DNA of 49,326 nucleotides from Betaproteobacteria bacterium (lineage in GTDB: Bacteria > Pseudomonadota > Gammaproteobacteria > Burkholderiales > JACQAP01). Each line of letters opens with the position of its first letter. Position 1 is the first letter of the stretch. Shown here one piece after another: positions 771 to 42,735 of this stretch. The translations under genes and the position numbers were made by a program. The notes beneath the pieces were generated by a model. It was not told where the DNA came from and ran no database searches. It worked only from the letters and a program-made list of their open reading frames with translations. Location: NCBI GenBank assembly GCA_025351455.1, contig JANXVW010000264.1, forward strand, positions 1 through 49,326, written 5' to 3'.

Positions 771-2300
771 ATGGAAAACACCTTGGACGAAGCCGGACCA
801 CGCAGGCTCATCGGTCGCGCATCGATCGTCGCCGCAGGAGCCATATACCGGCAGGGCATATCGTTTATTTCAGGGCTGATCGTGGCGCGCGTCATCGGCG
901 CAGCCGACTATGGAATCTTCAACCTGGCGCGCAACCTGGTGGACATGACGGGAATATTTACGCGGCTGGGGCTCGATCTGGGACTGCAAAGGTACTTCGG
1001 CGAGAGCAACACCGCGCAAGACCGCGCCTCGCGTACCGAAATGCTCATGCGTGTGCGCATGCTGACCTGCATGCTCGCACTGCTGCCGGTGATTGCTGTC
1101 GCGCTCGGCCTGGGCCGGTTTCTCGAGGCAAATGTCTATCACTATTCCCGCTTTGCCGAAGTCCTGCTGTGTTTGTCGCTGGCGCTTCCTTTCCTGACCG
1201 ATATTGGCGTACTGGGAGGCGCATACCGCGGCATCCTCAAGCTCACTCCGAGCGTGGTTGCGGAGTGCGTCCTGCTGCCGACCATGCGGCTTGCGGTGAT
1301 CGTCATTCTGTTCATGGCCGGATGGCGTCTGTGGGCCGTCGTCGCGGGAACCACGCTGGGGTCGGTCCTGGCTTCGGCGTTCCTCGCCATGCGTGCACGC
1401 TCCGATTTCGCCGGTGTCGCCCAAGCCCGGCCGCAATCGTGGAGCAGCACGTTCCGGGTCGTGGGTTACTCGAGCGTCCTGGCAGGGTCGATGGTCGTCA
1501 CTTCTCTGACAACGAACATGGACACGCTGATGATCGGTCATTTCAGAACCGCGCAGGAACTGGGACAGTATTCACTGGTGAAAACGCTGCTGATCCTGAC
1601 GGGCGTGTTCGGTGCCGCATGCGGCCAGGGCCTGGAAGCATTGGTCGCCGATCGGTACTTTCGTGGCGACATTCACGGGATGGTGCATGTAATGTCGGTC
1701 ACCGCCAGGCTGATTGCATTGGTGACGGTGCCGTTTTTTTGCGTTTTTCTGTTTTGGGGCGCGCAGATCACCCACCTTTTTGGCCCCTCGTTTGCGACGT
1801 CTCAAACCGTGGTCAGCTGGCTGGCCGCCGGACCGTTTGTCGCCATGATTTTCTGGCCGTCCGCCACTGCGCTGTCGATGACCGGCAAGCACTTCCTCGA
1901 ACTGAGGATTCTTTGCGTTGGCCTGGTCATTGCCACCCTGCTGTGCTGGGTTGCGGTGCCCGCGTACGGCCAGCTCGGAGCCGCCGTTGCGATATTGACC
2001 TCGGTGGTATTTGCAAATCTTGCGCGGGTCGTGGTCGTGCGCCGCTCGCTGGGAGCCTTCCCGTTTCGCGGCGATATCTTCCTCATCACCGCGGTGGGGA
2101 TCGCGCTGGCGTGGGTCAGCGCCCTGGTGGTGGCGCAGTTTGCGCTGCCCTCGGTCTGGAGCGCCGTCTGCGGAATCGGATGCTTCGTTCTGGTATATGG
2201 CGCCGCCGGCTGGATGCACCTGCTGAACGAATCGGAAAGAAGCGGTATCCGTGCCGCGGTCCGAAGTGCGGCCCAAATGCTGTTCAACAAATGGAACTGA
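771..2300 (+). CDS. wzx: Wzx-type polysaccharide flippase
   Basis: 509 aa with ~12-14 hydrophobic segments; 'IVARVIGAADYGIF' N-terminal pattern; 'DTLMIGHF...LGQYS' and 'VPAYGQLGAAVA'; EPS context. Confidence 0.85.
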   Translation: MENTLDEAGPRRLIGRASIVAAGAIYRQGISFISGLIVARVIGAADYGIFNLARNLVDMTGIFTRLGLDLGLQRYFGESNTAQDRASRTEMLMRVRMLTCMLALLPVIAVALGLGRFLEANVYHYSRFAEVLLCLSLALPFLTDIGVLGGAYRGILKLTPSVVAECVLLPTMRLAVIVILFMAGWRLWAVVAGTTLGSVLASAFLAMRARSDFAGVAQARPQSWSSTFRVVGYSSVLAGSMVVTSLTTNMDTLMIGHFRTAQELGQYSLVKTLLILTGVFGAACGQGLEALVADRYFRGDIHGMVHVMSVTARLIALVTVPFFCVFLFWGAQITHLFGPSFATSQTVVSWLAAGPFVAMIFWPSATALSMTGKHFLELRILCVGLVIATLLCWVAVPAYGQLGAAVAILTSVVFANLARVVVVRRSLGAFPFRGDIFLITAVGIALAWVSALVVAQFALPSVWSAVCGIGCFVLVYGAAGWMHLLNESERSGIRAAVRSAAQMLFNKWN

Positions 2301-2420
2301 GAGCCGCAGGCAATCAATGATGAGGATCAACATGTCAACAAGCGCAATGCGCACCCCGCCCCACTCAGTCCGCAGCGAAAGGCCCCCGATGAACCTTCTT
2401 ACTCGCCACAGGAGTGCGGC

Positions 2421-3506
2421 ATGACCCTTCAACTCATGGCTGTCGGCTGCGGGACGGTGTTCGACCAATACTACAAGTGCGCGCTGAAAAAGCTCGAGTC
2501 GCGTGGCATTGTCCGTGTCGTCGCACTCGTCGATCCCAATCCGGGACGCATCGCCGCCATCGCGAAAGACTTTCCGTCGGCCCGCGCTTTTACCACCCCC
2601 GCCGACGCATACGCACTGACGACGCCGGATCTCACGATCATTGCGTCTCCGCCGAACTGGCACGCCGAGCACGCGATCGCCGCCTTCGACGCGGGCAGCC
2701 ACGTGCTTTGCGAAAAGCCGATGGCTGCCAGCATCGATGATGCAGAACGCATGGTCGCGGCCGCGCGGAGCGCACGGCGCGTCCTGGCTGTCGGCATGAC
2801 CCGACGCATGTATCCGTGCCTGGCCGAGGCGCGGGCGCTTCTCGCCTCCGGTGCTCTTGGCGATGACTTGAGCTTCGTCTACCGGGAAGGCGGCGTGTAT
2901 GGCTGGCCGGTGAGTACCGATTTCCCTTTTCGCCGCGCAACCGCCGGCGGCGGCGTGCTCATCGACAAGGGCACGCACGTGCTCGACTTCCTGGCTGCGC
3001 TGCTCGGACGGCCCACCGCAGCGACGTATGCGGATGATGGCTACACCGATGGCGTGGAAACTAACTGTCAAATCGGTGTCGAATTTCCTCGCGCCAGCGG
3101 CACGGTGCAATTGTCCTGGAGCCAACCACTGGTGAACGGTTTCCACATCGCCGGTTCGGCCGGTGAGTTGACATTGCATCCGTGGCGGCTCGACGCCGTG
3201 CGGTTGCGACAAAATGGCGGCGCCTGGGAGACGCGAGTCAGCGCGGCCACCTGGCCCAGCGACCTGCGGATGGGAGGCAAGCGCGGAACGCCCTGGACCT
3301 ACGAGGAGTGCGTGTACTACCAGATCGTGCAATCGCTGCGCGCGGTGGTGCACGGGGAACAGGTGCCCGTCACCGGCGAAGACGGGCTGGCGATCGTGCA
3401 TGCGATCGACGCATGCTATCGGCAGGCGAAGCCACTGCGCCTTGCGTGGCTGTCGGAGGCCGAGCAGGCGCGAGCGGACTCCCATCACTGGAGCCGGCGA
3501 CAATGA
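2421..3506 (+). CDS. Gfo/Idh/MocA family oxidoreductase
   Basis: 'VGCG' Rossmann start; 'HVLCEKPMA'; 'GGGVLIDKGTHVLD'; RBS CAGGAG upstream. Confidence 0.9.
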   Translation: MTLQLMAVGCGTVFDQYYKCALKKLESRGIVRVVALVDPNPGRIAAIAKDFPSARAFTTPADAYALTTPDLTIIASPPNWHAEHAIAAFDAGSHVLCEKPMAASIDDAERMVAAARSARRVLAVGMTRRMYPCLAEARALLASGALGDDLSFVYREGGVYGWPVSTDFPFRRATAGGGVLIDKGTHVLDFLAALLGRPTAATYADDGYTDGVETNCQIGVEFPRASGTVQLSWSQPLVNGFHIAGSAGELTLHPWRLDAVRLRQNGGAWETRVSAATWPSDLRMGGKRGTPWTYEECVYYQIVQSLRAVVHGEQVPVTGEDGLAIVHAIDACYRQAKPLRLAWLSEAEQARADSHHWSRRQ

Positions 3507-4621
3507 GCGGCGCAATAGCGGTCCTGGGGGCCGGCGGGTTCGTCGGCGCCCGTTTGCTCGAGATGTCCGTTCTTGCCGGCCGCACGGACATCGTCCCCAT
3601 AGTGCGCGCCTTTCGCAGCGTCGCCCGGGTTGCGAACCTCGGCATGTCGCACCGACTGGGGGATGCTTCCCAACCCGAGTCGCTCGAGCGGGCACTGGCC
3701 GGGTGCGAGGTCGTGGTGAATCTCACCACAGGCGACCCGGCTGACATCCTGCGCACGACCCAGAACATATACCACGCGGCCGTCGCCAGCGGCGCGCGCC
3801 TGCTGATCCACCTGAGCTCGGCCACCGTCTACGGCCAGGTCGAACAACCCGGCCTCGCCGACGACGCACCGCCCCAGCTCGATCACTGGATGCCCTACGC
3901 GCGCGAGAAGGGCCTCGCGGAGAATTTCCTGCGTGACCGGATGGCCGAAGGGCAGATCACGATCGTGGTATTGCGCCCCGGCTTGATCTGGGGGCCGCGT
4001 TCGCCGTGGGTCATCCGGCCAGCCGTCGAGCTCGTCGGCGGCAGCGCCTATCTGGTCGGCGACGGCGGAGGCATCTGCAACTTGATCTACGTGGACAATC
4101 TGATACGCAGCATCGACGCCGTGGTGGCGCATCCGCAGCCGGTCTCTGGGTTCTACAACGTCGCCGACGACGAGACGACGACGTGGCGTGAGTACTATGC
4201 GGCATTGGCAACCGGTCTCGGCGTGGACGCGGCGACAGTCCACACAGTACCGGCTGACCGCTATCGCACGGGCCTGGGCGGCCTGGCGGAAGAACTCAAG
4301 AAGCTGCCCCCTTACCAGTGGCTCAAATACCGCCTGTCGCCCGAGACGAAAAGCGCCATCAAGCTGCGACTCAGGCTCGCCTTCGGGCGCGACCGGCCGG
4401 CACAGACGGACGGCAACGCGAGCCCGGATGTGACACGGGACATGTGGCACCTGCAGACCACGCGGTGTCCGTTGCCGACTTCCAAGTTCCGGGCGACGTT
4501 CGGCCACCGGAACCCAAGCTCCTTTGCCTCCGGGCTGGCCGCGTCGCTGGCCTGGCTGCGGTTCACCGGGTTTGATCAAAACAACCTGCAGGACAACCAT
4601 GGCCGACGAGGAGCCCCTTGA
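3503..4621 (+). CDS. NAD-dependent epimerase/dehydratase (extended SDR)
   Basis: 'VLGAGGFVG', 'HLSSATVYG', YxxxK ('YAREK'), 'LRPGLIWGP'. Start reassigned to ATG 3503 (ATGA overlap with the upstream stop). Confidence 0.85.
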   Translation: MSGAIAVLGAGGFVGARLLEMSVLAGRTDIVPIVRAFRSVARVANLGMSHRLGDASQPESLERALAGCEVVVNLTTGDPADILRTTQNIYHAAVASGARLLIHLSSATVYGQVEQPGLADDAPPQLDHWMPYAREKGLAENFLRDRMAEGQITIVVLRPGLIWGPRSPWVIRPAVELVGGSAYLVGDGGGICNLIYVDNLIRSIDAVVAHPQPVSGFYNVADDETTTWREYYAALATGLGVDAATVHTVPADRYRTGLGGLAEELKKLPPYQWLKYRLSPETKSAIKLRLRLAFGRDRPAQTDGNASPDVTRDMWHLQTTRCPLPTSKFRATFGHRNPSSFASGLAASLAWLRFTGFDQNNLQDNHGRRGAP

Positions 4622-7389
4622 GAATCGCACTTCTGGCACTGCATTTTGCCGAGTATGCAGCCCGTCTTGCGCTCGCCCTTTCGGCCAAACACGAGGTGCT
4701 GCTCGTGCTGCGTTCGAGCAATGCCAAGAGCGAACTGACGGAGGACCTGCGCGCGCTGCTTCACACAAAGGTGACCGTGCGATCACTCGAACCTGGAAGG
4801 ATGAGAGACCCGCGCACGCTCGGCACCAGTCTCAGAGTAAACAGGATGCTCCGGGATTTCTCCCCCGACGTTTTGCACATACAGGAGGTTCACCCCGTAT
4901 TGGTGGGATGGACGTTGCTCTCGTGTCGCCGCCGCATCCCGGTCGTCCTCACCGTGCACGATCCTGTTCATCATTCCGGCGGGCTTCACAAGCACAGCTG
5001 GCAATGGAGGATCGTTACCTGGTTCCGCCGCAAGGCAAGCCGGGTGATCGTTCACGGACCGGCCATGCACACCGAACTCGAAAACCTGGATGGTCGCATT
5101 GCAGGACGCGTTGACGTCATTCCACATGGCATACTCGGCCGGTCCGAAATCGACGACGATATATCGGGGCACGAGCCTGGCGCCTTTCTGTTCTTCGGCC
5201 GTGTCCTGGCCTACAAGGGTCTGCGCTATCTCCTGGATGCCGGCGATCTTCTACGCAGTCGGGGACAGGCTTTCCGGCTGATCGTGGCCGGAGCGGGCAG
5301 CGACCTGGAGCTTCATCGCTCGCGAATCGCAGCCAGTCCCTGGATCGAATTGATCGACCGCTATATTTCGGCAGCGGAAGTGCCGGGCTTGTTCCGCCGC
5401 GCAATGGCGGTGGTGTTGCCTTATACCGATGCAACCCAGAGTGGCGTAGGTGCAATGGCATTGGGCTGTGCACGGCCGGTCATCGCGACCGACGTAGGCG
5501 ACGTCCCCGACGTCGTGATCGATGGCCGGACTGGATTGATTGTGCCGCCGCGCGATGGGAATGCGCTCGCGGAAGCCATGCAAAAGCTGCTGGCCGATCG
5601 CTCATTGCGCGATTCGCTGGCGGCGGGCGCTGCCGGTTTCGCAACAGAGAAGTTGTGCTGGTCGCGCATCGCTGAACTGACGGTTGGCTCCTATCGTCAC
5701 GCGATCAATCCGCATTTAGCCAGGCAGGCGGAGGGCAACGGTTCGGCGCTGATCGGCATCCAACCCGCGAATCCCATAACGCCGAATCCCATTAGGCTAG
5801 GCGTCCTGCTGGATGGGAAAATTCAGGAAGGCTGGGTGCTCGACGCCGTGCGACAGGCTCTGGCCGTGCCGGGCGCCAGATTGGCGGCTGTCGCACTCGC
5901 CCGCGGAATAGTCCGCAAATCGTTTGCCTCTCGCCTCCACAGTCTTTTGGACGGAATCGACAGGCGCTTGCGATGCCGGGGAGAACGGCTGTTCATTCCC
6001 ACCAACATAGCCGCCGAATTCGACGCACCGCTGCTCAATGTCGAGGGCGCCTGCCACAGTGACGGCTGGTGCCTGGACGAGGCCGGGGCCGCTGCCTTGC
6101 GACAGCGCGAGGTCGATGTATGGTTGTGTTTTGCGGCTAATCCGCCGCGCCGGCCGATGAACCCCGTTTCCCGCCTGGGCGTGTGGGGCATCGAGATCGG
6201 ACAGCACGTATCGGCAACGAGCATCTGGGGAGGGGTGATGGAACTGGCCGCGGAGAGCCCGGTTACCATGGTGAGTGTGATTGATTACGCGGCTCCCCAG
6301 GACAGTCTGCTGTACCGGACCTTCGGCGCGACCATCACGAACTCGGTCCGGCGCAATCGCCTGGGTTCGATGCACAAAGGAATCAGTTTCTTCAAACGGA
6401 TACTGGAACGTCGCGCACGCGATGGGATTGCCTGGCATCGCGCCAAGTCCCTGGCGCCGGTGCCCGCGCGCTATCCGATGCTGCGTGAGCCGACGGTTGG
6501 CGCCACCGTCCGCCTGGCCTGGCGCCTGGCGTCAAATGTGGCCGCCACGCGCTGGCGCTCCCTGAACTGGCGGGATCAGTGGCAGGTGGCCTATTACTTT
6601 GCCGAAGAGGGTGAACTGAACTTCCGGTTTGAACGATTGCGCTACCTCGTGCCTCCCAAGGACCGCTTCTGGGCCGATCCATTCGCAGTCGAACATGAGG
6701 GCCGTTACTTCATTTTCTTCGAGGAATTGGCATTCAGCACGCAGAAGGGCCGCATCATGGCCGTCGAGGTCTTCGAGAACGGCGAATCCGGCGAACCGCA
6801 AGTCGCGCTCGAGTGTCCCTATCACGTCTCGTATCCGTTCGTTTTCACCTGGGAAGGTTCGCTGTACATGCTGCCGGAGACTGCCGCGAACGGCACGGTC
6901 GAGGTTTACCGTTGCGAGGAGTTTCCGCTGAAATGGAAGCTTCACCGCGTTTTCCTTGAAAACATCAGCGCCTACGACGCCACCCTGTGGAAGGACGACG
7001 ATCGCTGGTGGATGTTCGTCAACGTCGCGGAGCCCGGCGCGGACAGCAGCGACGAGCTTCATCTGTATTGGAGCATGACGCCGCTCGGCCCCTGGACGGC
7101 CCATCGCGCCAACCCGGTTGTTTCCGACGTGCGGTGCACGCGACCCGCAGGGCCGCTGTTCTCGCGCGACGGGGTGCTTTATCGACCGAGTCAGGACTGC
7201 TCCCTGGCCTATGGACACTCCGTGTTGATCAATCGGGTGGATGTGCTGCGTGATGACGACTACCGGGAAACGACGGTGCATCGAATCTCACCGGGCTGGC
7301 GCAAGGATATTTTGCACGTTCATACGCTCGGCGGCAGTCACCGGCTGCGGGTTGTCGACTACCTGGTGAGCCGGCAGCAACGATTCTGA
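4618..7389 (+). CDS. Fusion: N-terminal GT4 glycosyltransferase + central domain + C-terminal GH43-like/GINT1-N-like five-bladed beta-propeller
   Basis: GT4 motifs 'FFGRVLAYKG', 'LPYTDATQSGV', 'PVIATDVG'. Propeller motifs 'FWADPF...YFIFFEE', 'YHVSYPFVF...YMLPET', 'RPAG...YRPSQDC...YG'. Confidence 0.8.
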   Translation: MRIALLALHFAEYAARLALALSAKHEVLLVLRSSNAKSELTEDLRALLHTKVTVRSLEPGRMRDPRTLGTSLRVNRMLRDFSPDVLHIQEVHPVLVGWTLLSCRRRIPVVLTVHDPVHHSGGLHKHSWQWRIVTWFRRKASRVIVHGPAMHTELENLDGRIAGRVDVIPHGILGRSEIDDDISGHEPGAFLFFGRVLAYKGLRYLLDAGDLLRSRGQAFRLIVAGAGSDLELHRSRIAASPWIELIDRYISAAEVPGLFRRAMAVVLPYTDATQSGVGAMALGCARPVIATDVGDVPDVVIDGRTGLIVPPRDGNALAEAMQKLLADRSLRDSLAAGAAGFATEKLCWSRIAELTVGSYRHAINPHLARQAEGNGSALIGIQPANPITPNPIRLGVLLDGKIQEGWVLDAVRQALAVPGARLAAVALARGIVRKSFASRLHSLLDGIDRRLRCRGERLFIPTNIAAEFDAPLLNVEGACHSDGWCLDEAGAAALRQREVDVWLCFAANPPRRPMNPVSRLGVWGIEIGQHVSATSIWGGVMELAAESPVTMVSVIDYAAPQDSLLYRTFGATITNSVRRNRLGSMHKGISFFKRILERRARDGIAWHRAKSLAPVPARYPMLREPTVGATVRLAWRLASNVAATRWRSLNWRDQWQVAYYFAEEGELNFRFERLRYLVPPKDRFWADPFAVEHEGRYFIFFEELAFSTQKGRIMAVEVFENGESGEPQVALECPYHVSYPFVFTWEGSLYMLPETAANGTVEVYRCEEFPLKWKLHRVFLENISAYDATLWKDDDRWWMFVNVAEPGADSSDELHLYWSMTPLGPWTAHRANPVVSDVRCTRPAGPLFSRDGVLYRPSQDCSLAYGHSVLINRVDVLRDDDYRETTVHRISPGWRKDILHVHTLGGSHRLRVVDYLVSRQQRF

Positions 7390-8406: not shown

Positions 8407-9639
8407 TTATCGATTGCATTGTGCATTCCTCCTTGCATCCGCGCCGCGCCCCAGAAGTTTTTTCAGGACCGTTTTTCCCCGATGGATCCCGCGATGAATC
8501 CAGTAATCGCCGGCAGAACGAAAAACAATGATGCGATCGTTGAACCGCGTCCGGTTCGCAAACCGATACTTGAATGGTTCGGATCCGACGGTGAAGTCGA
8601 ACTCCTCCAGCCCTTTTTCGATTGCGTCATCGAGCAGAAATTTGAGCAGCACTTCCCCCGGAGACCGGGCGGCGAACTGCACGTCGAAGGCCGGCTTGTA
8701 CCAGATAAAGCGGCGCTGGTATTCGAATCCGAAATGAAAAGCCAGGGGCGCGTCGTCGAACAGAACCACATCGAAGCGCAGCCAGCCATGGCGCAACGTC
8801 TCCCTGATCAAGTCCCGGTAGAACACCTGCTGGGCCGGATCGTTGAACTGGCTGGGCGAACCCGCGTGCGCCCGCCTCGCTTTGTGCTGTTCGAAAAAAA
8901 CATCCAGGTAACCCAGGATTTCAGGTTCGCTTGTGCATCGGTGAAAGCGAAGGTCCCCCGATTTCTCGAAGAACCGGGTGTGCCTCTTCAGGCTGGATTT
9001 GTTTGCCGCCTTTCGATCGGCGTCGCGGTCGCCGAGGATGCGCACCGGTGCCTCCGCCTGAAACTCCACCGTGATTCTGGCGTCGCGGCGTTCAAAGTAC
9101 TCGAGGAGTCCGGCTTTATGGGGAGAATGGCTGGGGAAGTGGGACAGCTCGATGCGATCGCAGGCCGCGGCGTGCATCTCCTCCAGCAGCGCGGGTAGCG
9201 CCTGCGGCACAGCGGGATCCGTGATGAGGTCGCAGTAGTCGGAGGCGTGGTTGAGGCTGCCGATGAAGCAGACCTGACTGCGCACCCGGCCCAGCGGCCC
9301 CCTCTCCCGCACAATCATCATCGGTGCAATGCCCACCAGCCGGGAGCCCGCATACGCGAGGATCACAAACAGTTCATGGGAATCGCGGAACGCTTTCCAC
9401 CAGCAGGCGTGCCAGGCAAACGTCTGGAACACGCTGTGGTTCCCGGCGCGTTCCAGCAGCGCCGTCCACGCCGCTTCCGTGTCGGGAAGGTCGTCCCAGC
9501 TTCGCAGCCGAACTGTGCGGACGCGGGTCGGGTCACGGACCGGCGCCGTCCCCTGCCTTGCCTGCTTTTGCGCATCGAGGATGCGGTCCGGACGAAATGG
9601 ACCGCAGCGGTCCAACAGGGCCTGCGTCGAGTCCTTCAT
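8407..9639 (-). CDS. GNAT family acetyl/acyltransferase (CelD/BcsL, Acetyltransf_6-like)
   Basis: 'SVFQTFAW...WW', 'LVGIAPM', 'SDYCD', 'SPGEVLL...DFTVGSEPFKYRF'. Confidence 0.85.
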   Translation of the reverse strand: MKDSTQALLDRCGPFRPDRILDAQKQARQGTAPVRDPTRVRTVRLRSWDDLPDTEAAWTALLERAGNHSVFQTFAWHACWWKAFRDSHELFVILAYAGSRLVGIAPMMIVRERGPLGRVRSQVCFIGSLNHASDYCDLITDPAVPQALPALLEEMHAAACDRIELSHFPSHSPHKAGLLEYFERRDARITVEFQAEAPVRILGDRDADRKAANKSSLKRHTRFFEKSGDLRFHRCTSEPEILGYLDVFFEQHKARRAHAGSPSQFNDPAQQVFYRDLIRETLRHGWLRFDVVLFDDAPLAFHFGFEYQRRFIWYKPAFDVQFAARSPGEVLLKFLLDDAIEKGLEEFDFTVGSEPFKYRFANRTRFNDRIIVFRSAGDYWIHRGIHRGKTVLKKLLGRGADARRNAQCNR

Positions 9640-9977
9640 TCTGGGCGGATTTTCCGGGCGTCGGTCTGGCCAAAGCCACGCGGCTTGATCAGTCCGCGGG
9701 ATAAACGTGGTCCACCAAAAGTGGAAGTACCGGCAGCGTATCTGGTCAGGTTTTCGCCGCCGGGTACGGCTTCATGGTCCGAACGGATTATGCGGCCGGC
9801 AGGTTCTGCGGGAGTGAAGTGTAGGTCGTGCCCGGTAGATTGGCGATGCAGCGGGGTTGGGCAACCGTGCCGTCCCGCGACAGCGCAATTTCGAACGCGG
9901 ACTGCGGCATTCCGGCGCCGCAGCGGACCCCAACACATTGCCGGTCGTTTCCGATGGTATGAACCTGACCCGTCCCG

Positions 9978-11747
9978 ATGCCTATCGCCGCCGCCCGATC
10001 ACGACCTGAAGCTCTGCACAATCGGCCACGCGTGACGAGTCCGTTAATGCAGCATGGCGTGATTGCGCAGGCAAACGCGCGTCCGGAAGCCTGGGCGCTG
10101 GCATTCAAAGGCACCCGCATGACCTACGGCGCGCTGGAGGAAACATCCAACCGGCTCGGCCACCTGTTGAAAGACGCAGGCTGCGGCCGCGGAGATCGGG
10201 TCGGCCTGCTGATGCCGAAAATGCCCGCCGCGATCGTCGCCATGCTCGGCGTATTGAAAGCCGATGCGATCTACGTGCCGATGGATCCGGCAAGCCCCGC
10301 GGAGCGGCAGGCGCGGGTGCTTGAAATCAGCGACTGCCGCTGCATTCTCGCCGCCGGCCCCGTTGGTCCGGCCCTGCACGATGCCTTGGCGGCTGCGACG
10401 CTTCGCCAGCAACCCATCATCGGCTGGCTCGACGACAGCCCGCCACCGCAAGCCACTCCCGCACCGGCATTCTGCCTGCGCGATCTCGCCGCCTTTGCGG
10501 CGACCTGCCCGGTATCGGCCAATGGCGGTGACGACGTCGCACACATCCTGTTCACGTCGGGATCCACCGGATTGCCCAAGGGGGTGATGATCAGCCACGG
10601 GGCCGTGGTGAATCTCATCGAATGGGGGCGGGCCTACTTCGGCATCACCCGCACCGACCGGGTCTCCCAGCATCCGCCTTTGCGTTTCGACGTATCCACA
10701 TTCGACATTTTCGGCACGCTGTGCTCCGGCGCGGAACTTCACCTTGTTCCCGCGGAGTTGAATCTCCTGCCGCACAAACTTGCGCAGTTCATTCGCGATG
10801 CGCGGCTTACGCAATGGTTCTCCGTGCCATCGGTCCTCAACCTGATGACCAACTTCGATGTCGTGCGCCAGGACGATTTTCCCGCCTTGCGCGAGGTCCT
10901 GTTTGCCGGAGAAGCGATTCCCACACCCACCGTGATCCATTGGATGCGCCGGCTGCCGCATGTACGTTTTACCAATCTGTACGGTCCCACCGAAACGACC
11001 ATCGTAAGCAGCTACTATTCGCTCCCGCGTTGCCCTTCCGACGAGCGTGAACCGATTCCCATCGGGACTGCCTGCGCCGGCGAGGAACTGCTGGTCCTGG
11101 ACGATCAGTTGCAGCCCGTGGTCGACAACGAAATCGGCGAGCTCTACATTCGCGGTGTGGGCCTGAGCCCGGGTTACTGGCGCGATCCCGAAAAGACGCA
11201 ACGCGCCTTCCTGCCCTGTCCCGGCGCGACTGACCCCGGCGAACGCATGTACAAGACCGGCGACCTGGTGCGCCGGTCTTCGGATGGTCTCTTGCATTTC
11301 GTGGGCCGCGCCGACACGCAGATCAAGAGCCGCGGTTATCGCATAGAGTTGGGCGAGATCGAGGCGGCGCTGCATGCGGTTTCCGACCTGCAGGAAAGTG
11401 CCGTGCTGGCCATCAAGTCTGAAGGCTTCGAAGGCTGGCTGATTTGCTGCGCGTATGTACCGGCCGCGGGCAGGACAATCTCTCTGGTTGAATTGCGCAA
11501 GCGCGTGGCCGCGCTGGTGCCCGGCTACATGATTCCGGCCCGCTGGCTATGCCTGGACGTCCTGCCCAAGAACGAGAACGGCAAGATCGACCGCCCCGTA
11601 TTGAGAAACCATTTTCTCGGCGCCGAAGCCGGTTTGGCAACCTCCCGCACAGAGGAAGCGCCCACAGAGGAAGCGCCCCTGGCCGGGGCGCTGCACGAGA
11701 CGCACAACATGATGAATCCGCATCCAGGGAGAATGGCAAGTGACTGA
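9978..11747 (+). CDS. Stand-alone amino-acid adenylation domain protein (DltA/NRPS-A-like)
   Basis: A3 'ILFTSGSTGLPKG', A4 'FDVS', A5 'NLYGPTE', A7 'YKTGDL', A8 'GRADTQIKSRGYRIELGEIE', A10 'NGKIDR'. True start may be slightly downstream. Confidence 0.92.
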   Translation: MPIAAARSRPEALHNRPRVTSPLMQHGVIAQANARPEAWALAFKGTRMTYGALEETSNRLGHLLKDAGCGRGDRVGLLMPKMPAAIVAMLGVLKADAIYVPMDPASPAERQARVLEISDCRCILAAGPVGPALHDALAAATLRQQPIIGWLDDSPPPQATPAPAFCLRDLAAFAATCPVSANGGDDVAHILFTSGSTGLPKGVMISHGAVVNLIEWGRAYFGITRTDRVSQHPPLRFDVSTFDIFGTLCSGAELHLVPAELNLLPHKLAQFIRDARLTQWFSVPSVLNLMTNFDVVRQDDFPALREVLFAGEAIPTPTVIHWMRRLPHVRFTNLYGPTETTIVSSYYSLPRCPSDEREPIPIGTACAGEELLVLDDQLQPVVDNEIGELYIRGVGLSPGYWRDPEKTQRAFLPCPGATDPGERMYKTGDLVRRSSDGLLHFVGRADTQIKSRGYRIELGEIEAALHAVSDLQESAVLAIKSEGFEGWLICCAYVPAAGRTISLVELRKRVAALVPGYMIPARWLCLDVLPKNENGKIDRPVLRNHFLGAEAGLATSRTEEAPTEEAPLAGALHETHNMMNPHPGRMASD

Positions 11748-12030
11748 CGACCACGCAATCATCGGGCGCCTTGGCACCCTGTTCACCGCATGCTTCCACA
11801 TCGAAGTCCCGTCTCCGGATACCGATCTTCTCGAGTCGGGAATCCTGGATTCGCTCCAGTTCGTGGAGTTGCTCGTGCAGCTCGAGCAGAACTTCAACCT
11901 GCGCATCAAGATCGACGACATCGATCTGGAAGATCTGCGCACGCTTGCGCGCATCGCCCGGTTGGTGGACGCGAACCGCGAGGCCGCGCGTCCTTCGACA
12001 CTGCAGCACCCGTCAAGCGCCGCCGATTGA
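11740..12030 (+). CDS. Acyl/aminoacyl carrier protein (DltC-like)
   Basis: 96 aa; phosphopantetheine site 'DLLESGILDSLQFVEL'; overlaps the A-domain stop. Confidence 0.9.
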   Translation: MTDDHAIIGRLGTLFTACFHIEVPSPDTDLLESGILDSLQFVELLVQLEQNFNLRIKIDDIDLEDLRTLARIARLVDANREAARPSTLQHPSSAAD

Positions 12031-12094
12031 AGCCAAGCGCCGCGACGGATCGCAGGAATGCAACAGCAAGTCGCATGCGCAGGAACGTGACCCG

Positions 12095-13240
12095 ATGCGA
12101 TCCGACCCTCCCGAACAGCTAGCTCGCCGCACCAAGACGGACGCTGCCATCGCGACGATTCGCGTTTTCACCGAGGACGATGTCCCCGCCGCCGCCGCCC
12201 TGTTCGCCCGCGTCTACCCGGAATACCGCTGGCGCTCGCAGGATGCGTGCGAATCTTATTTCCGGGAGATACTGTTCGAGAATCCGTGGCGTGACCCGGA
12301 TATTCCTTCTTGGGTGGCGCAGGAGAATGGCCGGCTATCCGGCTTTTATGCCGTGCTGCCGCGGCGGATGCTGCTGCACGGCCGCCCGATTCGCGTAGCG
12401 GTGGGCTGCCAGTTCATGATGGCGCCCGACAACCGCAACAGCCTGGCGGCGCTGCAGCTGACGAAAGCCTGCATTTCCGGCCCCCAGGATCTCACGCTTG
12501 CCGATGGCGCGAACGCGCAGGCCCGGCGCATGTGGGTCGCAATCGGCGGGGTCGCACCCCTGCTGTATGGCCTGCACTGGACCCGGCTGCTGCGACCCGC
12601 GCGCCACGCGTTTTCCCTGCTGCAGGGACGGGGCGCAATAGCGCCTGCTGTCGCGCTAGCCGCCCGTCCGCTGTGCGCGGCCGCCGACGCGCTGTTCGCC
12701 CGTCTGCCGCCAAACCGTTTTCTGCGCGACCCACGGGATTTCTCCGGGAGCGCGCCGGACCCGGCGGCGATGCTGTCGCATTTTTCCGACTTCACGGGCG
12801 GCAGCGCGCTGCGCCCGGAATACAACGCCGGCGCGCTCGCCTGGTTGCTGGATCAGGCGGCACGCAAGAAGCGCCATGGTGAACTGCGCTCGCGCGCCGC
12901 ACTCGGCAGCAAGCGGCAACTGATCGGCTGGTATCTCTATTACCTGAATGCCGGCGGCGTGAGCGAAGTCGTGCAGATCGCGGCACGCGACGGCTGCTTC
13001 GACCAGGTATTGCAGCAGCTGATGGCCGATGCCTGGAGAAACGGTGCGACGGCGCTGCACGGTCGAGTCGAACCGCGCTTCCTGCAGGAACTCTCCGACC
13101 GCCACTGCTGGTTCCGACGAGAGGGCCCATGGACACTGATCCATTCCCGCCATGCCGAAATCGTGGCCATCATCCAGCAAGGCGACGCATTTCTCAGTCG
13201 CCTGGAAGGCGAATGGTGGCTACGCTTTCAGGGCGGATGA
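12095..13240 (+). CDS. Tandem GNAT-fold acyltransferase (FemAB-like)
   Basis: 'IRVFTEDDVPAAAALFARV', 'LFENPW...SWVAQENGRLSGF', and a second GNAT half 'LIGWYLYY'. Start reassigned to ATG 12095. Confidence 0.7.
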   Translation: MRSDPPEQLARRTKTDAAIATIRVFTEDDVPAAAALFARVYPEYRWRSQDACESYFREILFENPWRDPDIPSWVAQENGRLSGFYAVLPRRMLLHGRPIRVAVGCQFMMAPDNRNSLAALQLTKACISGPQDLTLADGANAQARRMWVAIGGVAPLLYGLHWTRLLRPARHAFSLLQGRGAIAPAVALAARPLCAAADALFARLPPNRFLRDPRDFSGSAPDPAAMLSHFSDFTGGSALRPEYNAGALAWLLDQAARKKRHGELRSRAALGSKRQLIGWYLYYLNAGGVSEVVQIAARDGCFDQVLQQLMADAWRNGATALHGRVEPRFLQELSDRHCWFRREGPWTLIHSRHAEIVAIIQQGDAFLSRLEGEWWLRFQGG

Positions 13241-14430
13241 TCCGGCAAGGCCCGGCACGAGGGTTGTCCGGGTCTGCCCACAAGGTCGTAGTCGTCGAGT
13301 CCGATGAGGGACTTTGCGATCACGTGTCGGCCTGGCAAGACCTTGCCGACCACGCCCTGGAGGCCAACGTGTTTTATGAACCCTGGCTATTGATGCCAGC
13401 ATTAAAAAATCTGCACCCGGGAACGCCGTTGCGTCTGGTCTTCATTTACGAGCCCGCTTCGCCGGGAACGGCCGGCGCATCGAAGTTGTGCGGTTTTTTT
13501 CCCCTGGAACCGGATTCGCGGTTTCGCAATCTGCCGATCCGGGCGTGGCGCCTGTGGAAACACATTCACTGCTTCCTCTGCACACCGCTGATCCGATCCG
13601 ATCGCGCCAGGGAAACGCTTGCGGCCCTGCTGCAATGGGCGGGTGGCGAGGGGCGTGTTCACCTGCTGGATTTTTCCCATGTCCGCGGCGATGGCCCCTT
13701 CCACGACTTGCTGGTCACGCACGTCAAGGAAACCGGAACGAGGCAATATGTCACGAACAGATTTGTGCGGGCCTTGTGGAAAGCCGGCGAGGGGCTCGAT
13801 GATTATCTGCAGAACACTTTGTCCCCTGGCGTACGCAAGGAATATCGCCGGCAACGAAAACGCCTCGCGGAGCTGGGTCGGCTCGAGTTCCGTACATTGC
13901 GCGAAGGCGCGGAGGTGGACGATTGGCTCGAGGAATTTCTGGGCCTCGAAGCCAGTGGGTGGAAAGCGCGCGAAGGACAGGCACTGGGATTGAGTTCCAG
14001 CCAGCGCAGCTTCGTGCTGGCAGCGGCACACCTTGGATTTGCACGCGGTCAGGTGTTTCTGCAGGGGCTATATCTGGATGGGCGGCCCGTGGCCATGTTG
14101 TTGAGTTTTCTGGCAGGCGGTGGAGGCTTTGCATTCAAGATCGCCTACGACGAGACACTGGCCAAATATTCCCCGGGGGTCCAGCTGATGCTCGATATCC
14201 TGGGTTGCCTGCATTCCGACTCGCGCTTTGCCTGGATGGATTCCTGCGCGGAGCCCGATCATCCGATGATCAACCGGTTGTGGAAGGATCAAAAAGTCAT
14301 CGAGTCCGTACTGGTCTCGACCGGGAATCGCCTCGGCGACGTGGCGGTATCGGTTTTCCCGGCGGCCCGGCGTCTGGTCCGGCTGCTTCGCGAACTCAGA
14401 AGTACCACTGCACTCTATGCCTTACGCTGA
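13237..14430 (+). CDS. GNAT family acyltransferase (CelD/BcsL-like)
   Basis: 'ALEANVFYEPW', 'FLGLEASGWK', 'FKIAYDE..AKYSPGVQL', 'DSCA.PDHPM'. ATGA overlap with the upstream gene. Confidence 0.85.
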   Translation: MIRQGPARGLSGSAHKVVVVESDEGLCDHVSAWQDLADHALEANVFYEPWLLMPALKNLHPGTPLRLVFIYEPASPGTAGASKLCGFFPLEPDSRFRNLPIRAWRLWKHIHCFLCTPLIRSDRARETLAALLQWAGGEGRVHLLDFSHVRGDGPFHDLLVTHVKETGTRQYVTNRFVRALWKAGEGLDDYLQNTLSPGVRKEYRRQRKRLAELGRLEFRTLREGAEVDDWLEEFLGLEASGWKAREGQALGLSSSQRSFVLAAAHLGFARGQVFLQGLYLDGRPVAMLLSFLAGGGGFAFKIAYDETLAKYSPGVQLMLDILGCLHSDSRFAWMDSCAEPDHPMINRLWKDQKVIESVLVSTGNRLGDVAVSVFPAARRLVRLLRELRSTTALYALR

Positions 14431-15337
14431 ACTCAAACAGGACGCGACGTCCGTCCGCGCGTCGACCGGAACACCGGCAACCGGGCTCCTCGACATCGAT
14501 CCGGTGACCTTCCGGGGATGTTTTGATCGCAGGCCATTTCTGATCGGCCATGCATTGACGAATCATCCGTTGTTCGAGATTTCTCGTCTGATGCGGCTGT
14601 GCCGGAGCCTTCCCGAATCCAGCGTCGAGTACAACGCGGGAAACATTCCGATCAGCGTGGATCCGAAAAGAACGCCGGGCAACGGGCTCAGCGCCGAGGA
14701 AACAATCCGCCGCATTGCGCAGTGCAGGTCCTGGCTGGTGCTCAAGTACGTCGAGCAGGATCCGGAATATCGGGCGCTGTTGCACGACTGCCTGGCGGAG
14801 GTAGCCTGGCAGTCCGAATCGCTTCGGCCGGGCATGTTCCTCGAGCAGGGCTTCATCTTCCTCAGTTCGCCAGGGTCAGTGACGCCTTATCACATGGACC
14901 CGGAGCATAATTTTCTTTTGCAGATTCGCGGCAGCAAACGCATTCACATGTTCGACGGGCGCGACCGCTCGGTGCTCTCGGAGGAGGAACTCGAGCAGTT
15001 CTACCGTGGCGGCCACCGCAACCTGGCCTATCCGACGAACGGCAACAGACGGGGTTGGACCTTTGACCTGAGCCCGGGCTTCGGCCTGCATTTCCCGGTG
15101 ACCGCCCCCCATTATGTGAGGAACGGCGAGGAGGTCTCCGTTTCCTTCAGCATTACTTTTCGCACGCCGGACCTGAAACGACGCCGGCTCGTACACATCG
15201 GCAATGCCTTTCTGCGACGGCGCGGATTTCGCCCCCGCCCTGCCGGGATGCATCCCCGGTACGATTTTCTGAAATATCTCGCCTTCGGAGCCATCAGCCG
15301 GATTCATCAATTCTTCGGCGGGGGTGGCCCCTCGTGA
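14417..15337 (+). CDS. JmjC/cupin-like Fe(II)/2OG oxygenase-family protein
   Basis: 'FIFLSSPGSVTPYHMDPEHNFLLQIRGSK' (HxD) with a distal His in 'APHYVRN'. Confidence 0.8.
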   Translation: MPYAELKQDATSVRASTGTPATGLLDIDPVTFRGCFDRRPFLIGHALTNHPLFEISRLMRLCRSLPESSVEYNAGNIPISVDPKRTPGNGLSAEETIRRIAQCRSWLVLKYVEQDPEYRALLHDCLAEVAWQSESLRPGMFLEQGFIFLSSPGSVTPYHMDPEHNFLLQIRGSKRIHMFDGRDRSVLSEEELEQFYRGGHRNLAYPTNGNRRGWTFDLSPGFGLHFPVTAPHYVRNGEEVSVSFSITFRTPDLKRRRLVHIGNAFLRRRGFRPRPAGMHPRYDFLKYLAFGAISRIHQFFGGGGPS

Positions 15338-15586
15338 CGCGGCTCGGTGTCCAACAACAATGGTGTGAAGAAGAGCCGGGATGTTTCCGTCGGTAGTGTT
15401 CCCCCGGTGCCTCGGTGTGTTCGCCTGCGTTGCCGGTTTCGCTTTGCCCGTCGCCGCCGCGTCGGACGGACATCTCATTGACAGCGCTGCTCCCGGCAGT
15501 CCGGGGCTCGCCTCGGATCCGGTGTTTACGGCATTGGCCTCGCTGCCAGGACGACGCACACCTTGAAGATCACGGTCACCGTCCAA

Positions 15587-16066
15587 TTATCCGCCGTACT
15601 CCCACGGCGCGTCCGCGACGGTGAGCGGCCTTACGTGGTTACCGCATTCGGCTTCGACCACGCCCAGAATCACCATGGCATGATCGCCGTCGGCGTCCAG
15701 GATCCGCTCCACCCGGCACTCCACATACGCAGGGAGGTTCGCCAGCACGGGGGCGCTGGTCCTGCCTTGCGCAAACGGTTCACCGTTTATCGTCCCGCGC
15801 TCCGCGCGTGTCGGGTAGAAGAACGTCCGCGCGATATCGAGCTGCTCATCCCCGACAATATGCAGGACCGCAGTCCGGCTGACGGCCAGGCATTTGAACA
15901 CGTTGCTCTCTCTGCGCACGGCCGCCATGATCAGCGGCGGCTTGAAGGACACCTGCGAAACCCAGGTCACCGTCGCCGCGCCGTAATGATCGTCGCTGCG
16001 CGAGGTCAGCACATAGACGCCGTTGGACAGCATCCGTAGCGTCTTCTGCCTGACTTTCTTGTCCAA
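15587..16066 (-). CDS. Flavin reductase family protein
   Basis: 'LSNGVYVLTS', 'TVTWVSQVSFKPPLI', 'YVECRV...GDH'. Confidence 0.9.
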   Translation of the reverse strand: MDKKVRQKTLRMLSNGVYVLTSRSDDHYGAATVTWVSQVSFKPPLIMAAVRRESNVFKCLAVSRTAVLHIVGDEQLDIARTFFYPTRAERGTINGEPFAQGRTSAPVLANLPAYVECRVERILDADGDHAMVILGVVEAECGNHVRPLTVADAPWEYGG

Positions 16067-16071
16067 GCCCG

Positions 16072-16737
16072 TTACCCCTGCCGAGCGTCTCGTTGCGCTC
16101 CGGCTTCGGCGGTTGCCGGACCCCCGCGCGAGTCTGACCCGATGTGCGGTTCGCCGGCCACGCGAAGTTCTTCATGTTTTCCCCGGACGGCCTGCCGGGG
16201 CGCACGCTGACCGCCCGGCCGTCGATCGCCTTCGCTACTTTCGTGCTCACTGGCCAGGAGATCGAACAGCAGCCGATCGTAAGCCTGGCCATCGATGAAG
16301 TGGCATTGACGCTGCCGGCCAATCGGGCGGAAGTTCAGGCGCTGGATGAGGCGAAGCGACGGATTGCCATCCACGACCCAGGTATTGATGGTCTCGAGAC
16401 CGAGATCGCGGAATCCCAGGGTCAGGACTTTCGATGCAGCCAACGTTCCAAGGCCGCGGTTGCGGAAGACTTTATCGCCCTGCGCTCCCCACAGCGTCGC
16501 GCTTTTGAAGTTCAGGTCCACGCTGTTCAGACCGCAGATACCGATCGGCGTCTCGTCCCGGTCGGACGTATACGCCCGCATGAAATGCGTAGGCCGCTGG
16601 GCCATGATTTTGAGCAGCGTGGGCGTGACGACCTGCCGGCCGTTGCCGAAGTCGAGCCACTGATGGTTTTCTTTCTGGGCCAGCCAGCCCGCCACCAGTT
16701 CGAGGATTTCCGGATTGTCCAGAGGTAGTAGTTTCAT
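16072..16737 (-). CDS. RimJ/RimL-type GNAT acetyltransferase
   Basis: 'PIGICGL', 'FRNRGLGT', 'GFRDLGL', 'N.S.RL..RLNFR.IGR.R'. Start ATG 16737 overlaps the upstream GT stop (ATGA). Confidence 0.8.
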   Translation of the reverse strand: MKLLPLDNPEILELVAGWLAQKENHQWLDFGNGRQVVTPTLLKIMAQRPTHFMRAYTSDRDETPIGICGLNSVDLNFKSATLWGAQGDKVFRNRGLGTLAASKVLTLGFRDLGLETINTWVVDGNPSLRLIQRLNFRPIGRQRQCHFIDGQAYDRLLFDLLASEHESSEGDRRPGGQRAPRQAVRGKHEELRVAGEPHIGSDSRGGPATAEAGAQRDARQG

Positions 16738-41892: not shown

Positions 41893-42735
41893 TTACGGTC
41901 CGACGGCGTTTTGGTCAAGACTGACCGCTGTGCCTGCGAACAGTCTGCCGTTTATGGTTGCGCCAGTTTGCATCCCGATCGATGTTTGAGACAGGATGGT
42001 CCCCTTGAATTTCGAGGTCGTGTTGAGGCTCGCGGCAGCGAAGGTCGCCCAGTAAATGTTCTGCGGCAAGGCGCCGCCGGCGAGGATGATCTGCACGCCG
42101 GGACTAACCGTGAGGCCTTGCGCGATCTGAAAGATCCAGACATCGTTGGGGCCGCCTGTAAGCGTGAGATTCGACGCGATGAGAACGCCGGAGCTCCATT
42201 TGTAAGTAGCAGGGGCGAGATTGAGGCCGCTGATATTGCCGGCTCCAAGTTCCGTGTAGTCGGGTGCCCGACTGTTGGCATCGGTGTACGCGGTTCCGGC
42301 GTCGTTTACCGCGGTGGTCAACGCCGAAGAATCAATAAACGAACATGCCGCAATATTAGCGCCGCCAGCTGTTGCTACGTGTATCGGCGTCGCCGATGAT
42401 CCCGTCACTTCCGGACAAGTCAAGCCAGTGACAAAAGTACCCGCTGCTGGGGACAAACCTACTTCACCGGTAATAGCTGAAGTCGGAACATCTGAAACTG
42501 CCGATTGCGCCAAAATTCTGAAATTGGCGGCCGACCCCATGATAACGGGTGCGGGACCCCGGCCCGCGCCGCCTACGCCTGTACCTTGACCAGGAGCATT
42601 CCCCGCTCTTGAGGAGGGAAACCCATTCCCGCCCCCACTCCCACTACCACTACTACCACACCCAGCTACGGCAACGGACAATAGCAATGCGGGAATCAAC
42701 GGCATTAGCTTCGATAAGCTTCCGAATCTATTCAT
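41893..42735 (-). CDS. Ice-binding family (DUF3494) lipoprotein
   Basis: Lipobox 'VAGC' + Gly/Ser linker; 'FRILAQSAV...ITGEVGLSP', 'LGAGNISGLNLAPATYKW', 'VWIFQI', 'NIYW', 'GRLFAGTAVSLD'. Confidence 0.9.
   Translation of the reverse strand: MNRFGSLSKLMPLIPALLLSVAVAGCGSSGSGSGGGNGFPSSRAGNAPGQGTGVGGAGRGPAPVIMGSAANFRILAQSAVSDVPTSAITGEVGLSPAAGTFVTGLTCPEVTGSSATPIHVATAGGANIAACSFIDSSALTTAVNDAGTAYTDANSRAPDYTELGAGNISGLNLAPATYKWSSGVLIASNLTLTGGPNDVWIFQIAQGLTVSPGVQIILAGGALPQNIYWATFAAASLNTTSKFKGTILSQTSIGMQTGATINGRLFAGTAVSLDQNAVGP

Follow-up and report, generated by a model that had tools for sequence, protein, structure and literature searches.

A cassette of genes at positions 8407 to 16737 of a contig from an uncultured sediment bacterium (Betaproteobacteria bacterium, contig JANXVW010000264.1) contains a conserved core of three genes, which encode a stand-alone amino-acid adenylation enzyme (A), a small DltC-like carrier protein (CP) and a tandem GNAT (GNAT1). 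The cassette lies within what is predicted to be a Methylobacillus-type EpsA-G Wzx/Wzy exopolysaccharide locus. The window analysed here is the entire contig of 49,326 nucleotides (49 kb) and belongs to an assembly of 3.94 Mb in 353 contigs that is 98.8% complete; all hosts of the cassette are uncultured, and the records closest to this DNA are metagenome-assembled genomes of uncultured Burkholderiales/Betaproteobacteria. The explanation that we tentatively prefer, with somewhat less than even confidence, is a cytoplasmic and carrier-dependent tailoring, in which A would load a small amino acid, GNAT1 would transfer it to a sugar intermediate, and two further GNATs (GNAT2 and GNAT3) and a JmjC protein would elaborate it. 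A sequence-only reading of this DNA had previously pointed out A, CP, four GNATs, the JmjC protein and a flavin reductase, and all of them were recovered where it had placed them and above the Pfam gathering cut-offs.

The A-CP-GNAT1 core and its setting

The open reading frames (ORFs) of the window were scanned with Pfam and NCBIfam models and their start sites were inspected; each part of the cassette scored above its Pfam gathering cut-off. A is encoded on the forward strand from one of two possible starts (9978 or 10047) to position 11747, and matched AMP-binding with 283 bits and the amino-acid adenylation model TIGR01733 with 405 bits (cut-off 317.4). The A4 Asp and the A10 Lys are present in the motifs FDVS and NGKIDR, and among 20 AMP-binding-type matches in the genome only the A of the window exceeded the TIGR01733 cut-off. 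By these sequence marks, A is predicted to be an amino-acid adenylation enzyme of the nonribosomal peptide synthetase (NRPS) type. The XrtA/exosortase-A accessory ligase model TIGR03098 was also tried and was rejected for A (265.6 bits, cut-off 592.35). The carrier gene (11740-12030, forward strand, 96 aa; PP-binding 41.5 bits against 20.8) begins with a GTG that overlaps the stop of A by 8 bp and encodes a GILDSL motif with Ser38; D37 and S38 were invariant across 24 orthologues. Translation of A is coupled to that of the carrier, whose phosphopantetheine site is conserved; this agrees with the earlier description of a stand-alone enzyme overlapping its carrier. GNAT1 (12095-13240, forward strand, 381 aa; Acetyltransf_9 26.2 bits against 25) follows CP after a 64-bp spacer without overlap.

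The linkage of these genes was examined in a metagenome sample of 80 GNAT1 loci, all of them at least 62% identical. A carrier was counted as adjacent when it lay on the same strand and no more than 400 bp upstream of GNAT1, and loci were considered if their flank was 450 bp or longer. CP was found directly upstream of GNAT1 in 58 of the 68 loci with enough flank. When the loci were collapsed at 95%, 90% and 80% identity, it was adjacent in 41 of 51, 30 of 39 and 10 of 15 clusters, respectively. A lay upstream of GNAT1 in 29 of the 37 metagenome loci whose flank reached 2300 bp or more. By reading of the neighbourhoods, an adjacent CP was also present in 14 of 18 testable genome loci, with the exceptions being L017, L021, L022 and L025. 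Two of the four exceptions were followed up (genomes G431 and G432; L021 and L022 were left out), and in both a different contig, with a locus of the same type, has a monooxygenase-A-CP unit next to Wzy-Wzx. The stop of the carrier is followed at once by the start of GNAT1 in two loci (L018 and L020), and in another the two are fused in frame (L049, protein P0040). The A-CP-GNAT1 trio persisted at 45% GNAT1 identity (L036), where it is flanked by genes for a luciferase-like monooxygenase, a WbqC-like protein, a methyltransferase, a PIG-L de-N-acetylase, a glycosyltransferase of family 4 (GT4) and a WecB-WecG fusion. The conserved core of the cassette is A-CP-GNAT1.

Among the 55 loci with enough flank on the other side, the downstream neighbour of GNAT1 was GNAT2 in 20, an AsnB-like amidotransferase in 18, a GT4-GINT1_N gene in 4, none of the genes of the window in 7, and another gene in 6. 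In many loci that contain A-CP-GNAT1, no FemX-like gene lies within reach, so that GNAT1 is the only transferase-like partner there. Many relatives of the cassette share two further conserved ORFs that no Pfam or NCBIfam model matched and that neither the window nor its genome contains, namely a 347-aa ORF (L064, 12841-13884, forward strand) and a 278-aa ORF lying antisense directly after GNAT1 (L061, 9153-9989, reverse strand). At L061, an Sfp-type phosphopantetheinyl transferase (PPTase) and a second didomain protein of adenylation and peptidyl carrier domains (1839-4641, reverse strand) also adjoin the cassette.

The NCBIfam models for EpsA (TIGR03020, 176.6 bits, cut-off 170), EpsD (TIGR02925, 139 bits, cut-off 109), EpsE (TIGR03028, 322 bits, cut-off 263), EpsF (TIGR03017, 447 bits, cut-off 423), EpsG (TIGR03029, 325 bits, cut-off 314) and the WcaJ-type priming transferase (TIGR03023, 503 bits, cut-off 411) were all matched above their cut-offs, and by these six models the locus is assigned to the Methylobacillus EpsA-G type. 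Wzy/Wzx genes occupy positions 3-2300, the window starting inside Wzy, while genes for GT4, UDP-sugar dehydrogenase, an AsnB-like protein and EpsA/D/E/F/G lie downstream, as expected from the polysaccharide setting that had been read from the sequence. A UDP-sugar 6-dehydrogenase, a TviC-like epimerase, an AsnB-like amidotransferase and a heparinase II/III-like protein are also encoded at the locus. The survey of neighbourhoods, which had been proposed as a check, showed that the cassette recurs and that its close relatives all lie among polysaccharide genes. GNAT1 loci at 45% identity or more with readable flanks were all among GT4, Wzx/Wzy, UDP-sugar dehydrogenase/epimerase or AsnB-like genes, and the A operon of the window itself is wedged between glycosyltransferase genes.

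The last two observations speak against the possibility that no polysaccharide is decorated, the cassette being merely co-regulated with the locus and making another product, such as an acyl-amide metabolite, a lipid head group or a PEP-CTERM/exosortase-sorted protein. In its favour, the model matched by the EpsA regulator bears the name XrtB/PEP-CTERM-associated, and several distant members of the GNAT1 family are found outside polysaccharide loci (L148-L151, L153 and L154). In one of these (L148, 2870-8755, reverse strand), an operon with genes for a GNAT1-like protein, an AsnB-like protein, a 103-aa carrier-like ORF (hhalign 91.6%), an AMP-binding enzyme and an NAD-synthase-like protein lies beside aromatic-catabolism genes. 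With the evidence taken together, a product other than a decorated polysaccharide seems quite unlikely to us.

The best full-length Protein Data Bank (PDB) match of A was the second A domain of LgrA. For the pocket segment, the best match was PltF (L-proline-carrier ligase, E 8e-20), followed by 4oxi (E 7e-18) and then by FscH and LgrA; 4oxi is titled enterobactin synthetase component F-related protein, and we take it to be AlmE with glycyl-AMP. The ten specificity positions, which were taken from the usual code and placed by motif anchoring, not computed, read DVFSLALIVK in the A of the window and DLFS(L/M)CLIAK in a second class of orthologues, as compared with DLLSLALVC in PltF, DLHTFCLIA in 4oxi and DIASLCIIY in the second A domain of LgrA. 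The pocket was identical to that of PltF at 6 of 10 positions and related to those of 4oxi and LgrA. Each of the 57 orthologues whose codes could be read retains the Asp that binds the alpha-amino group, and apart from this Asp and the Lys, which bind the amino and carboxyl groups, no residue of the pocket is charged. Because the pocket is closest to those of PltF (proline) and 4oxi (presumably AlmE, glycine), the comparison suggests at low resolution a small neutral alpha-amino acid (Gly/Ala/Ser/Pro-like) as the substrate, the substrates of 4oxi and of LgrA module 2 being those that we presume and not computed ones.

Fold of GNAT1 and proposed unloading of the carrier

The AlphaFold2 model of GNAT1 (predicted local distance difference test, pLDDT, 92.7) has a tandem GNAT fold. 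Its best fold match was 3n7z (Z 19.9, root-mean-square deviation, rmsd, 3.5 over 288), and N-myristoyltransferases (NMT) were matched at Z 19.4-19.7, Eis at 18.5-18.9, glucosamine N-acetyltransferase at 15.7 and MshD at 14.2. The identity of GNAT1 to the Eis, MshD and NMT structures was 9-14%, and a profile search against PDB sequences gave just weak generic GNAT/NMT matches. The beta4-alpha3 loop reads RNSLAA instead of a glycine-rich motif. Judging from the model, GNAT1 appears to be an Eis/NMT-like tandem GNAT of a large unnamed family and not a FemX-like protein.

This family has 2004 representatives at E <=0.001 and 884 at <=1e-30 in a library clustered at 50% identity, and a word-indexed search returned 733 matches, the best 120 of which were all at least 63% identical. 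Clusters of the family in Protein Atlas are unnamed Acetyltransf_9 only, and the source annotations of homologues are hypothetical or GNAT. GNAT1 occurs patchily. Of 36 genomes of the same genus, 6 had it, and 24 single genomes representing the other families in the order yielded none; samples of 401 genomes each, own genome included, gave 6 with GNAT1 for the order and 10 for the phylum. One member (P0130, 801 aa) carries an ATP-grasp domain at its C-terminal end (ATPgrasp_Ter, 35 bits), a fusion that recalls the dipeptide synthetases built of GNAT and ATP-grasp domains.

GNAT2 (13237-14430, forward strand, 397 aa; Acetyltransf_6 PF13480, 78.6 bits) overlaps GNAT1 in an ATGA if its start is at 13237. 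Its gene in turn overlaps by 14 bp the gene of a JmjC/cupin_8 Fe(II)/2-oxoglutarate-type oxygenase (14417-15337, forward strand; Cupin_8 30.7 against 27.4, JmjC_2 21.5), and with this start both overlapping junctions reported previously were found again. The JmjC protein is similar to JMJD5 (E 1.4e-5), its H159/D161/H232 triad was retained in 26 of 26 orthologues, and its gene came directly after GNAT2 in 18 of 18 loci. GNAT3 (8407-9639, reverse strand, 410 aa; Acetyltransf_6 PF13480, 106 bits) is of the FemX/CelD/BspF-type superfamily, is divergent from the A operon and had no NCBIfam match; its orthologues (61-77% identity) adjoin GNAT1 or the A operon in many loci. The BspF model gave 145.6 bits on GNAT2, below its cut-off of 775. 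The AlphaFold2 model of GNAT2 was moderate (pLDDT 72) and matched FemX (Z 17.1, rmsd 5.1 over 304), FemA (Z 16.3), the tRNA-dependent peptide synthase Sbb17 (15.1) and the MprF/L-PGS domains (about 13). GNAT2 is therefore modelled with a FemX-like two-lobed aminoacyl-transferase fold, and the FemAB-like label formerly given to the GNATs suits the Acetyltransf_6 proteins but not GNAT1. The Pfam family of GNAT2 and GNAT3 is Acetyltransf_6 and not FemAB, and neither of them had a sequence match to any solved PDB chain.

GNAT1 is preferred here as the enzyme that would unload the carrier, because it is the only transferase-like protein staying with A and CP across the variants of the cassette, among them the AsnB-type loci and the distant operon at L148. 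The sequence-only reading had treated the GNATs as a group of carrier users; the four are not equivalent, and the constant partner of the carrier is GNAT1. The assignment also has precedent, since an excerpt of PMC11685415 documents GNATs that use carrier-bound donors (SbzI, FeeM and GdvG). In the proposed mechanism, A would activate a small neutral alpha-amino acid and thioesterify it to the phosphopantetheine arm on Ser38 of CP. GNAT1 would then pass the aminoacyl group from CP to a nucleotide-sugar or an undecaprenyl-linked repeat unit, attaching it at an amine or hydroxyl, after which GNAT2 with its obligate JmjC partner, and probably GNAT3, would extend or hydroxylate the substituent. The amino acid, the donor of GNAT1, the acceptor and the order of these steps are what we infer around the domains, gene linkage and folds that were found.

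Several points weigh against this mechanism. The nearest folds of GNAT1, i.e., Eis, NMT, MshD and glucosamine N-acetyltransferase, use acyl-CoA, and no carrier-dependent GNAT or FemX was among the best 50 fold matches listed for GNAT1, with a relation to them being still possible. An adjacent carrier was lacking at GNAT1 in 10 of the 68 metagenome loci, and the close relatives represent one locus type and are hence not independent. The sole PPTase found in the genome was one ACPS-domain protein. No aminotransferase or de-N-acetylase for a free sugar amine was found among the window ORFs scanned, and because the window has no obvious enzyme making such an amine, an ester linkage is as likely as an amide. 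The proposed substrate of A depends on the motif-anchored pocket positions and the presumed substrates given above, neither of which was computed. Five of eight distant loci of the GNAT1 family (L150, L151, L152, L154 and L155) have no adenylating enzyme or carrier nearby, just an unidentified 79-aa ORF lies upstream at the distant locus L153, and the distant members outside polysaccharide loci have already been mentioned. A predicted complex of GNAT1 and CP scored 0.23 against a mark of 0.32 and was uninformative either way.

The fold of GNAT1 could also be accommodated by a different division of labour, in which the aminoacyl-carrier is made, GNAT1 is an acetyl-CoA-dependent enzyme capping the alpha-amino group, and GNAT2 or GNAT3 transfers the group to the sugar. 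Capping could take place on the carrier or after the transfer, as by MshD for Cys-GlcN-Ins. The Eis/NMT/MshD-like fold of GNAT1 would then be expected, as would that of GNAT2, whose matches (FemX, FemA, Sbb17 and MprF) are all aminoacyl transferases. N-acetyl-aminoacyl groups occur on bacterial polysaccharides, the L036 trio with its PIG-L deacetylase and GT4 recalls the MshA/B/D logic, and carrier adjacency and the CP-GNAT1 fusion fit capping equally well. However, A-CP-GNAT1 occurs without an Acetyltransf_6 gene in the visible flanks (the AsnB-type arrangement in 18 of 55 loci, L061 and L148), so that these loci would have no unloading enzyme, and to our knowledge the FemX-family enzymes characterised so far take aminoacyl-tRNA and not carriers. 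The distant loci listed above, both those without a carrier and those outside polysaccharide loci, count against capping as well. We regard it as rather unlikely, though it is the main alternative.

Carrier unloading by GNAT1 is kept as the preferred explanation. In its most extended form, GNAT1 would represent a new class of carrier-fed tandem-GNAT aminoacyl transferases acting on glycans, and together with GNAT2/GNAT3 and the JmjC protein it would build a short hydroxylated aminoacyl or peptide branch on the exopolysaccharide, by a hybrid carrier-plus-tRNA route without a condensation domain or MBOAT. In this full form the proposal is unlikely.

The monooxygenase of relatives and the accessory genes

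A monooxygenase of the SsuD-like luciferase type precedes A in most relatives of the cassette; matches to it were found in 33 of 112 loci searched, scoring about 122 bits with the SsuD model, which is below its cut-off. Wherever the coordinates of A were visible, including the same-genus locus L013, the monooxygenase gene ended a few bases before A. It was missing in the window and in L012, L039, L041-43 and L081. The whole genome of the window has no homologue of it, and no remnant was detected in the 338-bp spacer (tblastn of the window at E <=10; blastn of 9300-10400 against relatives). The cassette of the window is a derived form lacking the monooxygenase. In several relatives a monooxygenase-A-carrier unit was observed upstream of Wzy-Wzx (L013 426-683, L096 1-877, L132 6285-9270 and L133 1273-4291), and at L013 this carrier is in addition to the one beside GNAT1. 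The genome search gave no second A of the cassette type, with the window starting inside Wzy and so hiding the upstream position.

The presence of this monooxygenase before A in relatives, one of them of the same genus, and its loss here could possibly mean that the cargo of the carrier is not a plain alpha-amino acid but a sulfur-containing or oxidised acid made with the monooxygenase, and that the copy in the window adds another group or is in decay. The code of the second class of orthologues, DLFS(L/M)CLIAK, resembles what we take to be cysteine codes, which would suit such a cargo. Such a cargo is difficult to reconcile with the retention of the pocket Asp for the alpha-amino group in 57 of 57 readable orthologues, and decay with the fact that the cassette genes of the window are all intact open frames with conserved catalytic motifs. 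We consider it very unlikely.

A flavin reductase is the usual partner of a luciferase-type monooxygenase. The one in the window (15587-16066, reverse strand; Flavin_Reduct 98.9 bits) is the last gene of a convergent GT4-GNAT4 operon and is weakly similar to the FerA, HpaC and StyB reductases; it has no visible oxygenase partner here, because the genome has no luciferase-like monooxygenase. Wherever it occurs in relatives, it accompanies GNAT4 and the two follow a GT4 gene, whether the monooxygenase is present or not. Its previously proposed place in the A system is weakened for both reasons, i.e., it travels with GNAT4 and GT4, and the oxygenase is absent. GNAT4 (16072-16737, reverse strand, 221 aa; Acetyltransf_3 27.5 bits against 25.4) is a single-domain GNAT whose ATG, at 16737, overlaps the stop codon of the GT4 gene that precedes it; the PseH model scored 22.8 bits on it, below the cut-off. 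The four GNATs of the window are of three kinds and are not equivalent.

No cassette protein scored as a member of a membrane protein family in the family scans, no dedicated topology prediction having been run. A promoter and terminator scan of 9400-16200 gave nothing usable in the intergenic regions. Upstream of the cassette, a 923-aa GT4 glycosyltransferase (4618-7389, forward strand) is fused to a GINT1_N-like domain (154 bits), and genes with GINT1_N domains adjoin GNAT1-family genes even at distant loci (L061 13323-15020 and L152 15536-17023). Just outside the polysaccharide locus, an ice-binding-like protein is encoded (41893-42735, reverse strand; PF11999 193.7 bits), on which the IBP_CFB model scored 211 bits, below its cut-off of 400.

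Comparison with known systems

In the literature searched, no description of the cassette was found. As in the Dlt system of teichoic acid D-alanylation (DltA-DltC-DltB-DltD), an A and a DltC-like carrier would feed an aminoacyl ester to a surface polymer; however, the transfer in the cassette would be cytoplasmic. Membership in the Dlt system was rejected. The DltA models scored 270 bits (TIGR01734, cut-off 559.85) and 282 bits (NF003417, cut-off 476) on A, and the DltC models 43.2 (NF003464, cut-off 68) and 34.2 (TIGR01688, cut-off 52.35) on CP, all below the equivalog cut-offs. Condensation, thioesterase, MBOAT and DltD proteins were not found among the window ORFs scanned with Pfam, just as had been read from the sequence, and the whole 98.8%-complete genome had no match to MBOAT (PF03062), DltD (PF04914) or Condensation (PF00668). 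Thioesterase (PF00975) gave two weak matches in the genome, both on other contigs, and an NRPS assembly line was likewise rejected on the lack of condensation domains and the position of these two matches.

The AlmE/AlmF/AlmG system of Vibrio cholerae, according to an excerpt of PMC4278540, adds glycine onto lipid A. It resembles the cassette in that a stand-alone A and a small DltC-like carrier act without an MBOAT, and in the cytoplasm, on a surface glycolipid of a Gram-negative bacterium. AlmG is a membrane protein of the lysophospholipid-acyltransferase (LPLAT) type, whereas the partner in the cassette is a soluble tandem GNAT and the target presumably an exopolysaccharide unit. No AlmG-type acyltransferase was among the window ORFs scanned with Pfam; the rest of the genome was not searched for LPLAT.

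Two systems of secondary metabolism share the logic of the cassette, with no specific sequence relation to it. For altemicidin, the excerpt of PMC11685415 describes that the adenylating enzyme SbzL loads the carrier SbzG and the GNAT SbzI moves the acyl group to an amine. SbzI is a single-domain enzyme moving a sulfonamide acid, whereas GNAT1 is a tandem GNAT. For butirosin, the genes listed in an excerpt of PMC13707489 for the 4-amino-2-hydroxybutyrate (AHBA) side chain are BtrI, J, K, O, V, H and G. Here too an amino acid undergoes tailoring while bound to a carrier and is afterwards joined by N-acylation to an amino sugar; however, an ATP-grasp enzyme does the loading and BtrH, which is not a GNAT, the transfer, and an antibiotic results instead of a polymer. 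The luciferase-like monooxygenase of this set is BtrO, with BtrV as its flavin reductase.

With regard to single enzymes, the model of GNAT2 shares its fold with FemX, FemA and MprF, of the aminoacyl transferases that also include MurM, but differs from them in its Pfam family (Acetyltransf_6) and in the lack of a sequence match to a solved chain. GNAT1 shares the tandem fold of Eis, MshD and NMT; those are users of acyl-CoA that are not linked to carriers, whereas GNAT1 is gene-linked to one and in one case fused to it. The cassette is a variant of the logic seen in Dlt, AlmEFG and butirosin, one that falls outside the Dlt and AlmEFG systems themselves.

Amino-acid substituents alter the charge and antigenicity of bacterial surface polymers as well as their susceptibility to phages and enzymes, and for most aminoacylated polysaccharides we know of no installing enzymes. 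The cassette, with its A, carrier and tandem GNAT, is a compact and soluble candidate route to polysaccharide aminoacylation. Because the GNAT1 family is large and unnamed, a functional result would annotate thousands of genes of soil and sediment bacteria. If the proposed role of GNAT1 is true, it would be a second structural type of carrier-dependent GNAT and may serve as a tool for glyco-engineering.

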